IMG/VR virus record: IMGVR_UViG_3300044608_001826 | Span: 23,476-87,475 of that record | Source of the DNA: a virus | Strand: one strand, 5' to 3' | Length of the DNA stretch: 64,000 nt | In this document: positions 9,140 to 48,940 of the stretch, piece by piece | Position numbering within the stretch: the first letter of the stretch is position 1 | How the letters are laid out: each line of letters opens with the position of its first letter | Made by a program: the position numbers and the translations under genes | The notes under the pieces: model-generated | Database searches by the model: none | The model's input: the letters and a program-made list of their open reading frames with translations, nothing else | Told to the model about the DNA's origin: nothing

Positions 9140-9209
9140 GGGGCGGTAGTCTATTGGTAAGGACAAGCGGACAACGCTTCGAAAGTCGGTTCGATTCCGA
9201 CACGCCTCC
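9140..9209 (+). ncRNA. Atypical tRNA-like element
   Basis: GGGGCG/CGCCTC acceptor, D-arm GTCT-ATTGGTAA-GGAC, perfect T-arm GTCGG-TTCGATT-CCGAC; anticodon arm AAGCG-GACAA-CGCTT has a 5-nt loop without U33. Confidence 0.6.
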
Positions 9210-10946: not shown

Positions 10947-13437
10947 TTAGTTAAGTTCTTCGTTGTTGATTTGTTCGCGCAGGTCCGCGATTATGTCCTG
11001 CAATTTATAAGATTGTGAGGCAGTTGTTGCTACATCAAGTGCACACTCAAGGTTGTAAAGTGCGTCTTTAGCATCTTCGATTGTCAGGAAAGTGTCGGTG
11101 CAGTAAGTTACACCGTATTCATCACATTGTGTGAGCGTAATCATCAGAAAACACCTCGTGATTCGATGTGAGCTTGAATGTCAGAGTCCGAAGGTTCCCA
11201 CCCTTCGATGTATTCGAGTGCGGGGATGATGTTCTCTTCTATTTGATCAGCAATGTCGGAGGGAATCATCATGTCTCGCTGCAACAGTTGTTTGAACCGT
11301 GCGAGCGCGTGGTAAGACAAACTATGACAATCAAGGGAGTAGAGATCGTAAGGAAAGCGATTCATTTGATGTAAGTTTGTGAGTGTTTGTGTGTAGCCTG
11401 TAGGCTACTCTTCCGGCCATTCGAATCCTTCAGGAACCTCCCAAAGGTCTCCGTCTTGGTGCAAGTACCAAGTTGTACCAGCTGCATCTGTGAATCTAGC
11501 ATTATCTAGAATGTTAGTCCATGCCTCCCAGTACCATTCGTGATCTGGCCCGGATTGGCAGATTTGCACATCCTCCATAGATACATTTGCCAGTTTGGCC
11601 CAGTCTTCATCCACATCTACGCAGAACATCTGAGGGATGTAGATACCGTTTGTGTCGGACAGAATCAGGTTGGGTCCTATCATCATTCTGAAGGGATTGT
11701 AGGTGTTGTGTGAGGCGGCCCCGCGAAGCGGAGAGGGTATCAATCAGCAGTCAGATTGTTTGTGCATGAATGATTCATGTGTACGTTGGATCTGTTTGTA
11801 CATAAGCGGATACGTATACGCTACGTATTCACACAGTTTGCACATAGCATCGATGTGCCTGCGCTCCCAACAATCAGAACTCTGCACAGAACTCTGATAC
11901 TTAATCGCTTCGATGATTGTGTGCGGTTGGAACAGATCGAGCGTGGACTCAGTTAAGCATTCCATGGTGTTCATTTGATTAAGGTTGGCGCCATGCTTTG
12001 CAGCATCGTGAGCTTATGTAGTACTCTGCCGAATAGTCTGCGATCTGGTATTCGTGCAGCGTAGTGTTAGCCTCCTTGCGAGACTCGAATTCATCCACAG
12101 TCTCTCGGTAGTTGTGGTTGATTGATCGGCGGTTTATGTAGTACATGATCAGTCGAAGTCAGTTAGTGAAACATTCGTAGGTCGTTCGATAACCTTGCTG
12201 CCTGTATCTTCAACCTGTGAAGTAACAACAATGCGACGACATAGTGAGTTGTATGCAGCAGGACATTCACGCATAAGATGTCTGCGCATTTCTGAAGTCA
12301 TGTAGTGATTAACTACCATGAGCAATTGATCTTTGTGATGCTCGCTAAAGTGTGCGTCGTACATGATTAACGATTGGGGTTGCAGGTTGCAGGTGTTATG
12401 TTGACCGATGTTATGTTCCCTTCGATAGATAACAGCACATCGTCGATTGCTTTAATCACAGGGTGAGAGTCTTTGTACACCTGCGGATACTTATTAGCTA
12501 AGCGCATAACTTCTGCGCGGTAATCGACAAGCGCAGTGCGTACAATCGTTGATGAGATCTGCATTGTTATTGTGTGTTGTTAGTTTGTGTTGGTGCCGAA
12601 CATTTGTTCGAACAATGAAGGCTCACACTCATACTTAATCTGTTCGCGAACACGGTTAAGTTCAGCGACCAAAGCATCATGCTTGCGCTTCATCTTGTCT
12701 AATTCATTCCAGCTGTGGAGAATGTCACGCTGTAGGGTGAACTTCTTGTTAATGAGATCATCCAAGAAGTCGAATGTTTCAGGGTTCATGATGTAGTTAA
12801 ATGGTGTTAGTTTCGTGAAGATAAACGTAAACAGCGTGCCAAATCTCCATGGGAGAGTATTGACCTGGAGTAAAATCTATTCCGTCATTATTAATAGTTA
12901 AGCGCCCATAGTTACCGGGGACTAACTGTTCATTGTCTGTCTTCCATCGTGCAGAGAACTTACGATAAACACGACGACGTTGAGATTGTATCTTGTTGCC
13001 ATCTTCTCTCCACAATCTATGGGAACCGTAATCAATGAAGTTACGGCGAGACTGTGAGCGAACGTAAGACTTAAGGTCGGAGATTGTGAGATTCATGATC
13101 AGATTGCGAGTGGATTGTGTATCTAATGTCAGGAGGAATAGCGGCCCACAACTACACGGTCGCAGTCACCTTCCACCAAACGGACAACTGTTCCGCTGAA
13201 GTATGAGTCAGAATTGTATCCTTCCCAGTGCTGAAGTTCGCTGGTGGATTCTACAGGTGTGCTAATGAAGTCGCACAGATGGTAGAACTCACCGCGATAC
13301 TTAAAGAACCCATAGTTATACTCAATGCTATCTGGGTGCATCCAATCGAATTGTTTGCGGATCTTATCTTGATCTGATTGGCTGAAGTCGCACAAGTGCA
13401 TCAGATCACGAGGCTGATTGTTTGTGATGATGTTCAT
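10947..13437 (-). other. Tightly packed cluster of about ten small early ORFs (10947-11144, 11144-11365, 11405-11686, 11744-11974, 11979-12146, 12149-12364, 12367-12564, 12580-12789, 12797-13096, 13129-13437)
   Basis: Same strand, short gaps, CA-rich leaders without SD; 11979-12146 (MYYINRRSIN...) was translated by hand; the last ORF probably starts at ATG 13437 (MNIITNNQPR). Confidence 0.75.
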
Positions 13438-14118
13438 AACATTCACCAGCAATAGAGCTGGCAGCTGACAACAAATGAGGGTGAATCCCTCAGTCTGAGT
13501 GATACTCAGAGGGAGAGAATCTACGATCAAACTAAACTGTAGACCATCCGGATCATGAATGATCTCATTTGGTCCCTTGTTAAACCTGTCGGAAGACAAG
13601 CTATAACTAATCTGCAACCACCCAGAGAAGAACTCTCCGGAAAAAGTTAAAACAAATTGTAGGGCATGTAGTTAGTTACAGTGCACAGAATGATCATCGG
13701 CTGATAACAAGTCCCGCCATCGTACGGATCGGCGCCGACGTGGGGGGCAAGTGTCCAATGGCCAGAGTACCTGCATCAAACACAGGTACGCTGGACAGTA
13801 TCTGTACGCTGTAACTAACTACAACCCGACAAGTTGGATTGTATTAAGGTGCAACCTGACAAGGGTTGCTGACATTTAGTGTCACTAAATTGCCTTAGTT
13901 ACAGACAAGATACCTACTGACAAGTCGCAGTATAGTTGCAGGGTGTGAGCGGACAAGGGTTGCTTGTCTGACCTATGGCCCACAGTTACAACTTGTGGGG
14001 GAACTTCCGCGCCCACTTCATTGCTTAAGTATTAAACAGCTGAACATAACTAAGGCGAGGCAATCGCCACACCAGGGAGTAAGAACTACTTTGCCCTTAG
14101 TTACACACAACTATTCTA

Positions 14119-14130
14119 TTGTCAAGGTTC
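14119..14130 (-). promoter_or_regulatory. boxA-like antitermination motif
   Basis: GAACCTTGACAA versus the cyanobacterial rrn boxA GAACCTTGAAAA; forms the 3' arm of hairpin TCAAGGTT-GACG-AACCTTGA. Confidence 0.55.
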
Positions 14131-14272
14131 GTCAACCTTGAGACTTCTACAGTTCCGGCGCTCACGTTCGGTCACACCATGCCTGCCATTGCCTACACTT
14201 CAGGGGCTCCCTGGTGGGAGCTCCCTACCATCAGCGGCAGAGCGTGGGAGCCGTTCGGCCATCCCGGATCCG

Positions 14273-14291
14273 TATTCAGTTCTCAAGGTTC
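14273..14291 (-). promoter_or_regulatory. boxA-like antitermination motif
   Basis: GAACCTTGAGAACTGAATA, just after the hairpin CTGAAGC-AAAGC-GCTTCGG at the predicted transcript start. Confidence 0.55.
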
Positions 14292-14319
14292 AACCGAAGC
14301 GCTTTGCTTCAGTGACCTA

Positions 14320-14349
14320 AAGGTATCCGGTAACCGGTTCGCCAGTCAA
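14320..14349 (-). promoter_or_regulatory. Sigma70-type early promoter
   Basis: TTGACT-18 nt-TACCTT pointing into the early arm. Confidence 0.55.
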
Positions 14350-14766
14350 CCTCTTCTGACCGGTTCACGGATTGGCACACAGCACACGATGCTCACCACG
14401 TCCGCAGAACCTAGAAGGAAACGCGAGCGCACGCGAATACTATAGGCAGCGCCCAGCCGTCAACTGGTTTCGCAAATTGAAATAATGTTACCTAGCCCGC
14501 ACACTTTGCAGACTTGATGATAGGATCTCCCTCTAATCCTAAAGGTAACTATACAAACTCACTGTGTATTATAAATACATAGGCTTGTTTGATATCTTTA
14601 TACAAACTAGGGGCACCCCACAACCCGGAACTTCCTGCCCGCAATCGCCTTTTTTTTATATATACACATGGGGCGGCGGGGGCCGCTAGAAGGTTAATAT
14701 TATTTTGCTGGGAAATTGAGGTAAAAATTTTTCGGCTGTTATTATGGTGCCAGAATTTTCGGCGCC

Positions 14767-15444
14767 ATGGCGACCTTAGTTGCAAATATCCCTCCCGTAA
14801 AAGTCTGGGTTCGGCGGGAATATCTTCGAGATTTACGTGACGGGCACGGTGAGTACACCCCAGGTTACTGGGTTACTTGCAAATCACTTACCGGACGGGC
14901 TCTTTACTTCGAGACGTACTTAACTGAGTACGGCGCTTTGTACGACAAGCTGCCGATCAGCGCGTTTCTAGCGTGGGAATCTGATTATCCCGATGCGCCT
15001 AGACCTCCCGAACCTGATTTAGAGCTGACAGACCTGCAGTTTTGGAACGGGTTTGATACGGGGCTTACCGTCATCGAGAAGAACTTGATCTACAACATGC
15101 GTTTTGAAGTCATGACACGCACTGCTGGTGTATTGGGGGGCACATACTTGTTCACAATCGACAATTACCATCCGCATAGGAACGAACCTGACCTTTATTT
15201 CGCTGAGGTTCCGGATGAGCACAAGTCGCACAATCTTGTTGTTTTGGACAACGGCCAAATTGGGGCTTATCCTAATAATCGCTGTCGAATGGTTGACCCA
15301 TCTTTAACCAATAACGACCTCAAAACACCCGATTTCAAGGTCTCTACGCGCTATTTCGACGTAGAAAACGCCCCGAAATGGGGTCGTTTGGGTGAATGTG
15401 ATGATTATTTTTGGAAAACACCCCAAGAGCAAAACCCCACCTAG
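14767..15444 (+). CDS. Conserved phage hypothetical protein
   Basis: LVANIPP..VWVRREYL, YGALYDKLPISAF, YLFTID, EHKSHN, YPNNR motifs recalled from aquatic phages. Confidence 0.8.
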   Translation: MATLVANIPPVKVWVRREYLRDLRDGHGEYTPGYWVTCKSLTGRALYFETYLTEYGALYDKLPISAFLAWESDYPDAPRPPEPDLELTDLQFWNGFDTGLTVIEKNLIYNMRFEVMTRTAGVLGGTYLFTIDNYHPHRNEPDLYFAEVPDEHKSHNLVVLDNGQIGAYPNNRCRMVDPSLTNNDLKTPDFKVSTRYFDVENAPKWGRLGECDDYFWKTPQEQNPT

Positions 15445-15468
15445 GCTATACCTATCGGCTCAGGGCTT

Positions 15469-15786
15469 ATGTTGTCCGCAGATGTACGCCTTCGGGTCGA
15501 ATTTATCTGTCAACGTATCTCTAAAGGGCAAGAAGTTCAGCTAAACGACATGCAATGGGTCCAAAAATGGGCCAACTGCAATCACTCCGTGGACGCCATG
15601 CTGCGTAAAGCGCGTCGTACGGCGATCAACGGCGACCAGCCTGCAGACAGTTTGGACGGTTTTATGCAAAGTATGGATTTAGGGGAGCCAAATCCTTCTG
15701 ATCAGCTTCACGGAGCCCAAGATCCAACCACGTTGGCTGAATGGTTTAGTCAAAAACGTAAATGGTTTCGAGGATCTGTTGATTAA
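15469..15786 (+). CDS. Conserved cyanophage/cyanobacterial hypothetical protein
   Basis: MLS..RLRVEFIC.RI..G.EV.L.DM.W..K motif. Confidence 0.75.
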   Translation: MLSADVRLRVEFICQRISKGQEVQLNDMQWVQKWANCNHSVDAMLRKARRTAINGDQPADSLDGFMQSMDLGEPNPSDQLHGAQDPTTLAEWFSQKRKWFRGSVD

Positions 15787-48447: not shown

Positions 48448-48940
48448 ATTGGGGTTTTTGTGCGGCTTTTCTAAGCATCTCCTCTTTTATTTCCTGCGCT
48501 CTTTGCTCGGGATCCATACTGTAAGAACCTTGTAAATCTGGGTTTAATTTGTCAACTACTTCCAGCGCCCATGCCTCTGGGTTTAGGTAATCCAGAAACC
48601 CAGCTAAGCGAGCTGCTGACTGGGGGGAGCCTAAGACTGAACTTTTTATGAGAGGATTTGGATGAGACACCACCATCGCTCGCTGCGTGGGAGTCTTCGC
48701 TCCTTCTACTCGTTGTTTCTGGACTGCACCTACGGTTCTTGTTGCCCACGGTGCAATCGTTAGTAAGTCTGCTGGTTGAGCTACTGATGCAGCTAATCCC
48801 GCACTCGCTTTTGCTGCCGCTCGTCTTGCGGAGGACATAGGGTCTAACCCTGCACCTCTCCCAGCACCGTATTCGCTGGCGAAGTTTACAACATCTCCAA
48901 CAAACGGTACCGCTTTTAACCAGCTTGGTAACGGTGCCAT
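48446..48940 (-). CDS. Hypothetical protein
   Basis: 164-aa ORF filling the gap, convergent on the terminator. Confidence 0.55.
   Translation of the reverse strand: MAPLPSWLKAVPFVGDVVNFASEYGAGRGAGLDPMSSARRAAAKASAGLAASVAQPADLLTIAPWATRTVGAVQKQRVEGAKTPTQRAMVVSHPNPLIKSSVLGSPQSAARLAGFLDYLNPEAWALEVVDKLNPDLQGSYSMDPEQRAQEIKEEMLRKAAQKPQ

Follow-up and report, generated by a model that had tools for sequence, protein, structure and literature searches.

GOLLD and ROOL are large structured RNAs linked to phages and prophages. Other phage RNAs act as signals at the head of an early operon, as do the lambda nut site (boxA and boxB, with the N protein and Nus factors) and the HK022 put site. Such an antitermination signal makes the polymerase resistant to termination, and boxA is common to phages and to the ribosomal RNA (rrn) operons of their hosts (relevant parts of PMC10250234 and PMC2800207). 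The order of elements in an rrn operon is given in PMC10250234 as P1, P2 and, just after P2, boxB, boxA and boxC, and the E. coli model outlined in the same source has NusB, bound to boxA, tether the leader strand close to where RNA leaves the polymerase, until the trailer strand comes out and the long helix can form. The suhB-type leaders of gamma-proteobacteria, as portrayed in sections of PMC5725501, are short, Nus-regulated and repressing, with a boxA less than 50 nt from the start codon. Here we report on a 1.33-kb divergent gap (positions 13438–14766) in a window of 64,000 nt, corresponding to bases 23476–87475 of the 87,475-nt IMG/VR virus record IMGVR_UViG_3300044608_001826, which is rated complete by CheckV. 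The gap holds a real, conserved and heavily folded untranslated RNA at the head of the early genes, in which a probable boxA antitermination leader, of the kind known from phages and rrn operons, is joined to an undescribed large RNA fold.

The source of the window is an uncultured freshwater cyanophage related to Synechococcus phage S-EIV1, an isolate from a high-arctic lake. The large terminase subunits (TerL) of the two are 52.6% identical, and among cultured phages none besides S-EIV1 is near in TerL. S-EIV1, the nearest cultured relative, infects Synechococcus; for the present phage, the host is inferred.

The locus resembles the control region of a bacterial rrn operon in having two tandem promoter-like blocks, a hairpin and boxA on the transcribed strand, in the identity of its boxA elements to picocyanobacterial variants, in its long structured untranslated RNA and in its long-range closing helices. 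It differs in that its product is not an rRNA and protein genes follow, in that boxA, and not a separate boxC, provides the 5′ strand of a closing helix, and in having two boxA sites about 160 nt apart, known here from sequence. With lambda nut and HK022 put it shares the nature of a phage RNA signal heading an early operon, but it is ten times larger, and neither an N-like protein nor a conserved boxB sequence was identified here. At E ≤ 10, no known antitermination RNA in Rfam matched it. Like GOLLD and ROOL, the leader is a phage-borne RNA structure that covaries over hundreds of nucleotides; it is set apart from these by the lack of a match to the 4227 models of Rfam 15, by its fixed place 5′ of the early operon, by its boxA and by a swappable middle module. 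Finally, as in the suhB-type leaders, boxA occurs outside rRNA, in the untranslated sequence 5′ of protein-coding genes, although at 680–850 nt upstream it is much farther away than in the leaders covered by those sections of PMC5725501. The locus would represent a large, covariation-supported RNA family that is missing from Rfam and from the literature searched, and its anatomy contributes a pseudoknot, a boxA acting as a helix strand and a swappable module.

Conservation and folding of the leader

The original prediction, made without relatives of the phage at hand, had placed a structured non-coding leader of about 870 nt at 13438–14315, inside the gap. To the left of the gap lies a long block of minus-strand genes, opening with the open reading frame (ORF) 13129–13437, whose AUG is at 13437–13435; to the right, plus-strand genes run from 14767. 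The first homologues of the region were reached via a 761-aa gene further to the right, and two DNA patterns drawn from their alignments yielded 20 viral and 36 metagenome loci. The region is present in 30 of the 36 metagenome loci, in addition to viral loci. Removal of 10 sequences at least 98.5% identical to a retained one left 28 non-redundant sequences, some of which end at contig ends. Pairwise identity in the aligned blocks is 63–100%, and conservation spans the entire gap, the middle being variable. The predicted leader is real, but its extent had been underestimated: the element includes a second promoter-like block at 14463–14437, and the conserved gap continues to 14766. Megablast and blastn searches of 50,697 phage records returned no match to the region.

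The longest ORF in 13438–14766 has 108 aa (TTG start, plus strand). No open frame is common to the 28 homologues, whose longest stop-free frames vary in frame and place, and the alignment contains indels of 8, 10 and 17 nt, which are not multiples of three. A coding gene is thus ruled out, and the non-coding status originally proposed is borne out. The proposal that the leader belongs to no known family also held: at gathering scores, the Rfam 15 search returned only two tRNAs (20006 and 20083), and at E ≤ 10 the interval 13200–15000 gave three chance-level matches, none of them within 13438–14315.

For the analysis of folding, the relatives were realigned domain by domain, because crude MAFFT blocks folded with RNAalifold only at near-zero energies. 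The fraction of alignment cells that can pair was compared with that of slid-partner controls, and the covariation score with that of 500 shuffles. In alignment A4 (13835–13655, 25 sequences), 14 of 49 pairs are changed on both sides and 96.2% of the cells are paired, as against 26–44% for slid partners; in A5 (14325–14105, 20 sequences), this holds for 16 of 45 pairs, with 95.1% paired against 23–45%; and in A3 (pseudoknot and hairpin H1, 23 sequences), for 8 of 18, with 95.2% against 25–46%. The variable module was treated in two versions. The commoner one (A8, 14 sequences, the window excluded) has 40 pairs, 17 of them changed on both sides, with 96.1% of the cells paired against 29–45%, while the version found in the window (A9, 9 sequences, i.e. 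the window and eight relatives) has 30 pairs, five of them changed on both sides. In A6 (13670–13438, 24 sequences), six of 19 pairs are so changed. None of the 500 shuffles reached the observed covariation score in any of the counted alignments (A3, A4, A5, A8). Covariation among homologues had been named in the original prediction as a means of checking it; the compensatory changes found among the 28 sequences total more than 50 pairs, and the folded domains sum to roughly 650 nt.

The RNA is read from the minus strand, since G.U cells exceed A.C cells by 236 to 30 in the minus-strand structures. Consensus energies of the same alignments, folded as minus and as plus strand, are −41.4 and −22.7, −45.4 and −35.8, and −23.2 and −14.4 kcal/mol, and these energies together with the wobble counts rule out a plus-strand RNA. 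The window's own sequence has a minimum free energy of −343 kcal/mol (z −10.3) for the minus strand and −310.8 kcal/mol (z −7.3) for the plus strand, with 20 shuffles each. Covariation, energies and wobble asymmetry all agree with the structured minus-strand RNA that had been proposed, and the leader is shown to contain at least four covariation-supported domains, namely domain R, module V, the pseudoknot with H1 (13884–13820) and domain D1, followed by a 3′ hairpin (Table 1).

Of the two boxA sites, site 2 is shown to supply the 5′ side of the closing helix of domain R. Its partner is the anti-boxA (14143–14134), with UCNAGGUU at 14141–14134, and two positions of this helix covary (AU:11/UA:6 and AU:14/CG:6). 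Site 1 adjoins the 3′ side of the same helix and shows no covariation with the anti-boxA. Downstream of it, no common fold of 13890–14135 exists across all relatives (A7), the region splitting into alternative modules; the type found in the window includes the TAACUAAGG/CCUUAGUUA hairpin at 14044–14103. RNAalifold pairs boxA site 1 with CUUGUCAG..RGGU (13924–13912), about 200 nt downstream, in both A8 and A9, and this helix, the two sides of which are nearly invariant, is predicted to close module V.

The pseudoknot was spotted by eye and then confirmed by counting. In the 23 sequences of A3, three of the six pairs of stem 1 and four of the five pairs of stem 2 are changed on both sides. Stem 2, which joins loop to tail, has 97.4% of its cells paired and occurs as TGACA/TGTCA, TGACG/CGTCA, GGGCG/CGCCC, CGGCG/CGCCG and CCGCG/CGCGG. 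In one relative (L138), the whole stem of H1 is exchanged while its loop is retained. The 3′ arm of H1 overlaps the top of the long stem of D1, and the two may be mutually alternative. The arms of D1 are retained in L123, L144 and L159 despite a replaced interior. An alternative also exists for the 3′ arm of the 3′ hairpin, which can form a terminator-like GAGGG-AUUCA-CCCUC hairpin with a U-rich tail (13476–13492); a clean U run after it is absent in the relatives (A6).

Two further observations concern these domains. A palindromic hairpin of 30–40 nt, CCAG.GTACCTG...CAGGTAC.CTGG (13759–13798), recurs with 85–100% identity and in either orientation in L089, L095 and a second site of L097, although the flanks of these sequences are otherwise unalignable. 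In addition, four independent contigs break off within the leader, two of them (L084 and L085) at about 13471, L096 at 13665 and G001, also L123, at about 13620, which may reflect assembly breaks at inverted repeats or swappable modules.

In the original prediction, the RNA was built from two interlocking repeats. TAACTAA occurs 18 times in the window as against 9.0 expected (0 of 100 shuffles reach 18), whereas GACAAG, with 29 matches against 35.5 expected, shows no overall enrichment. Both are strongly clustered in the leader at the coordinates originally listed. Six TAACTAA copies lie in 13604–14103 in strictly alternating orientation (13604+, 13672−, 13812+, 13895−, 14047+, 14097−), and seven of the 29 GACAAG copies lie within 13595–13968, six on the plus strand and one (13963) on the minus strand. 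The two stems noticed at the time, of 15 and 10 bp, were recovered as well: the former is the perfect core of a 23-nt, 91% complementary stem (I1, 13667–13689/13801–13823), the latter a 10/10 complementary one (I18, 13892–13901/14047–14056). The interlocking repeats are real, yet they are not the scaffold of the RNA. Most covarying pairs lie in other helices, and only part of the copies is conserved: three of the six TAACTAA (13672 in 21/27, 13812 in 20/27 and 13895 in 22/27; the other three in at most two) and three to four of the seven GACAAG (13595 in 19/24, 13828 in 23/27, 13904 in 20/27 and, less so, 13919 in 8/26; 13858 is found in 3/26 and 13952 in 0/25, and 13963 is not conserved). The long stem of D1, with three covarying pairs, arises from TAACTAA copies 2 and 3, and the type of module V present in the window has a hairpin closed by copies 5 and 6.

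CUUGUC, the minus-strand form of GACAAG, had been thought to be displayed in the loops of three hairpins. Two of these (13851–69 and 13820–43) do covary, but the third (about 13912–13933) is not conserved, and in 13851–69 the motif is not displayed, being a strand of the pseudoknot and reading CUCGUC or otherwise in most relatives. As regards the CsrB-like protein sponge among the functions originally suggested, which would call for many conserved loop copies of one short motif, CUUGUC is both looped and conserved only in H1, at 13828; the copies at 13904 and 13919 sit in a conserved linear segment. The motif may be, at least in part, an anti-boxA, because the first copy in the segment 13892–13924, together with RGGU, is predicted to pair with boxA site 1.

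Promoter-like blocks and boxA sites

Two tandem promoter-like blocks precede the folded RNA. The pattern TTGAC-N16-21-T[AG][GT]TA of the upstream block, P1, matches at the aligned place in 19 of the 28 sequences. The downstream block, P2, was already recognized as a sigma70-like promoter in the original prediction and is conserved as a consensus sequence: TTGAC-N19-nAnnnT is found at the aligned place in 22/28, with a weak −10 element (TACCTT, GATCTT or GATGCT). At the place of the boxB-like hairpin, the relatives have, as judged by eye, a hairpin of other sequence and length.

The boxA of the cyanobacterial 16S–23S spacer (ITS) is GAACCTTGAAAA (parts of PMC8461337 that give the motif). Sites 1 and 2 of the leader are two of only four sites within one mismatch of it in the 64 kb; the other two, at 48525 and 63453, fall inside long ORFs and were taken as chance matches. 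Host boxA elements were scanned in a single genome for each species, requiring the D4 motif (CTGCATA) and allowing any base at positions 7 and 10, which gave at least 120 loci with a few non-cyanobacterial records among the matches. Directly before D4, among the matches listed, GAACCTTGAAAA occurred 45 times, GAACCTTGACAA 32 times, GAACCTTGAGAA 21 times and other forms six times. Since the forms of site 1 and site 2 are found before D4 in 32 and 21 of these at least 120 loci, both are exact natural forms of the picocyanobacterial rrn boxA. The carriers of GAACCTTGACAA include the freshwater picocyanobacteria Synechococcus sp. CS-1330, Synechococcus sp. UW140 and Vulcanococcus limneticus.

Among the 28 sequences, site 1 retains the strict motif GAACCTNGANAA in 23. 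Site 2 has the strict motif in 10 and a near variant in 13 more. The canonical GAACCTTGAAAA appears in two relatives, at site 1 in L154 and at site 2 in L142. A literature search for the boxA variant strings returned no relevant paper, the supplementary tables of PMC10250234 and PMC5725501 lying outside its reach, and a search for cyanophages with boxA, antitermination or NusB found no cyanophage paper.

The host sequences offered two observations of their own. A second boxA-like site, GAACCTGGACAA, lies about 200 nt into the rrn contig of Synechococcus sp. UW140 (L196:215–226), 5′ of the spacer boxA and after a short hairpin; it provides a position-7 variant from a host, in the presumed rrn leader. 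In several Prochlorococcus loci (L169, L183, L185, L192 and others), boxA-D4 occurs twice, about 3 kb apart and on opposite strands (GAACCTTGACAA, GAACCTTGAGAA).

Table 1. Features of the leader and its control region, in the direction of transcription (positions in the window).
Feature	Position	Strand	Remarks
Promoter-like block P1: TTGACG (14463–14458), then TAGTAT	14437–14463	−	TGn-type extension in relatives
GC-rich (CG)n hairpin, then UUUCC, just 3′ of P1	14412–14434	−	Flagged as terminator-like; in relatives too
Promoter-like block P2 (of the original prediction): TTGACT, 18 nt, TACCTT	14320–14349	−	Sequence consensus
boxB-like hairpin GAAGC-AAAGC-GCUUC	14296–14310	−	Between P2 and boxA site 2; judged by eye
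boxA site 2, GAACCUUGAGAA (GAACCTTGAGAA)	14280–14291	−	One mismatch to GAACCTTGAAAA
Domain R, multi-helix, about 150 nt	14134–14290	−	A5; closed by boxA site 2 and anti-boxA
boxA site 1, GAACCUUGACAA (GAACCTTGACAA)	14119–14130	−	One mismatch to GAACCTTGAAAA
Variable module V, in two or more alternative folded versions	13925–14118	−	A7, A8, A9
Conserved segment CUUGUCAG-YRGGUAUCUUGUCUKUAACUAAGG	13892–13924	−	Two CUUGUC copies and TAACTAA copy 4
H-type pseudoknot	13851–13884	−	Stem 1 13851–56/13864–69; stem 2 13857–61/13880–84
Hairpin H1, conserved loop ACUUGUCNG	13820–13843	−	93.8% paired, one pair changed on both sides
Domain D1	13655–13835	−	Long stem 13667–13689/13801–13823 around three-branch interior; hairpin 13764–13796
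3′ hairpin GAUUCUCUCC...GGAGGGAUUC	13477–13521	−	A6: 15 pairs, six apical ones changed on both sides
CCAGC/GCUGG hairpin over GGUGA Shine-Dalgarno-like site, then AUG	13435–13461	−	Conserved in A6

Probable antitermination and competing explanations

We consider it probable that the gap is the control region of the leftward early operon, and that its RNA is an rrn-operon-like leader which recruits the host Nus antitermination machinery. Host RNA polymerase would start at one or both of the predicted tandem sigma-70-type promoters (−35 elements at 14463 and 14349) and transcribe an untranslated leader of about 0.9–1.0 kb ahead of the first gene (AUG at 13437). The two boxA elements would bind host NusB–NusE(S10), the loading of which would produce an rrn-type, termination-resistant and fast-elongating polymerase for the long early operon. 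The Nus complex might also aid the formation of long-range helices, as has been proposed for boxC and the leader–trailer helix of rrn. Each boxA of the leader would be the 5′ strand of a helix closing a domain of 150–200 nt, as shown for site 2 by covariation and for site 1 by prediction only, a layout that appears to fit the NusB-anchoring model in the sections of PMC10250234 devoted to it. Antitermination was one of several functions offered in the original prediction, and it gains support from the two rrn boxA sites, which had gone unmentioned there.

On this reading, a phage early operon would be tied to the rRNA antitermination system of its host in cyanobacteria, where this system has barely been studied. 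It would suggest how cyanophages that are not T7-like obtain processive early transcription, and it would provide a natural test case for whether boxA-bound Nus factors help long-range helices to form, as the model in PMC10250234, in its relevant part, has it.

It should be noted that several points weigh against an antitermination leader. The promoters, start sites and RNA ends are consensus predictions, and the −10 element of P2 is poor. At site 2, 13 of the 28 relatives depart from the strict motif (GCACCTAGACAA and similar), and at site 1 the relatives vary at positions 7 (C or A) and 10 (T) beyond what is seen in host sites. Moreover, site 2 is probably not single-stranded in the mature fold, as NusB–NusE needs, since it lies in a covarying helix; site 1 is unpaired in the A5 consensus, yet paired with CUUGUCAG..GGU in the A8 and A9 predictions. 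NusB–NusE binding could, in a co-transcriptional scheme, precede the pairing of boxA. S-EIV1 has, at the corresponding place in its genome, a gap of about 990 nt, but a profile nhmmer search gave nothing at E ≤ 10 and the genome has no strict boxA; the leader is therefore not general to the lineage. Cyanobacteria are not known to possess Rho; if they lack it, the target of antitermination is puzzling. As to the fold itself, the alignments used for counting were also those from which the structures had been predicted, and the excess of G.U over A.C is partly inherent in folding the minus strand. A first helix search on a global MAFFT alignment gave 947 antiparallel and 965 parallel runs, and with strict settings 16 against 17 and 10 against 18. 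Finally, the terminal U.G of the pseudoknot, seen in 8 of 23 sequences, is a pair only on the plus strand.

An alternative that we regard as unlikely is that the leader chiefly gives rise to one or more phage non-coding RNAs that stand on their own, cut out at the long stems (RNase III acting at 13667–89/13801–23 being one example) and active in host takeover, either as a decoy for NusB–S10 or through CUUGUC loops directed against the UGACAA of the host rrn boxA. As in an rRNA operon, boxA would then mainly serve the making and folding of the RNA. Indeed, some 650 nt of covarying structure far exceed the needs of a boxA leader, the layout is rrn-like in its tandem promoter-like blocks, hairpin, boxA and long-range closing helices, modules are exchanged among relatives while the closing stems are retained, and CUUGUC is conserved at 13595, 13828 and 13904, one of these copies being looped. 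However, no hairpin of terminator grade precedes the first gene, so that the RNA at least shares a transcript with the genes; two boxA copies are weak for a sponge; and the complementarity between CUUGUC and boxA covers just 5–6 nt, with both sides invariant.

The two ideas can be combined, at the price of a conjecture to which we give rather little credence. The locus would then mimic an rRNA operon, the Nus complex both driving early transcription and chaperoning a modular RNA of about 0.9 kb, boxA being handed over to the anti-boxA, and the RNA, with its CUUGUC loops and pseudoknot and possibly after processing, would act in trans, e.g. by masking the boxA of host pre-rRNA or by titrating NusB–S10.

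A cis-acting switch or attenuator, in which alternative pairings would set transcription or translation into the early genes in response to a signal, seems to us improbable. The sequence does contain mutually exclusive helices. As candidates, TAACTAA copy 3 could pair with copy 2 or, instead, with copy 4, H1 could compete with the top of the long stem, and the 13477–13521 hairpin with the small GAGGG/CCCUC hairpin and the U-rich stretch after it; a further candidate is the Shine-Dalgarno hairpin, CCAGC/GCUGG, which overlaps the GGUGA ahead of the AUG. The invariant GAGGGAUUC is common to the 3′ hairpin and the terminator-like one. In each alternative pair, however, covariation favours one helix far more than the other. 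The two-state switch of the original prediction is weak because, in 10 of 23 relatives, a C-to-A change in the helix between copies 3 and 4 (13812/13895) has no compensating change on the other side. Likewise, the terminator-like stem has just 5–6 bp and lacks a U run in the relatives, and the Rfam search gave no family match of a ligand-pocket-like kind.

Least credible, and in our opinion very improbable, is that the repeats are DNA-level sites (an origin, operators for a phage DNA-binding protein or mobile cassettes flanked by inverted repeats) with an incidental RNA fold, for although the TAACTAA and GACAAG cores show conservation of sequence and not just of pairing, interiors between inverted arms are replaced in L123, L144 and L159, contigs L084, L085, L096 and G001 end within the region and a T8-ATATAT block is conserved at 14650–14665, the more than 50 compensatory pairs, the pseudoknot and the ratio of G.U to A.C cells are not expected of double-stranded DNA, and there is no skew inflection at the gap. 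A replication origin or operator array, for which conservation symmetric between the strands and free of compensatory changes would be expected, was rejected on the same pair and wobble counts, and the skew lends an origin no support.

Neighbouring genes and elements

The first gene to the right of the gap (14767–15444, in the 14767–15786 region) encodes a protein of 225 aa assigned to phrog_3704, which is annotated as 'ferredoxin' and has no Pfam match. It is 76–90% identical across 204 viral contigs, the flanks of which are unrelated. This gene and the next one are missing from the closest relatives of the phage and are an insertion relative to L087; together they look like a mobile, moron-like insertion adjoining the control region. 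As a route to homologues of the leader, the 225-aa gene proved a false trail: none of its 80 loci has the leader, and 10 of 12 tested neighbouring proteins were unmatched there.

Elsewhere in the window, ARAGORN identified a tRNA-Cys-like gene at 9140–9209, on the plus strand and antisense to its neighbours, which scores below the Rfam tRNA gathering threshold.

At the right-hand end of the gap, a strongly conserved block at 14640–14760 consists of C-T8-ATATAT, then GACGGCG..GGCGAGAAGG, then TTTTGCNGG.AAAT. It is probably the rightward promoter region or another DNA-level signal. Even distant relatives in which the remainder of the leader is absent have this block, which a pattern search recovered from 20 viral loci.

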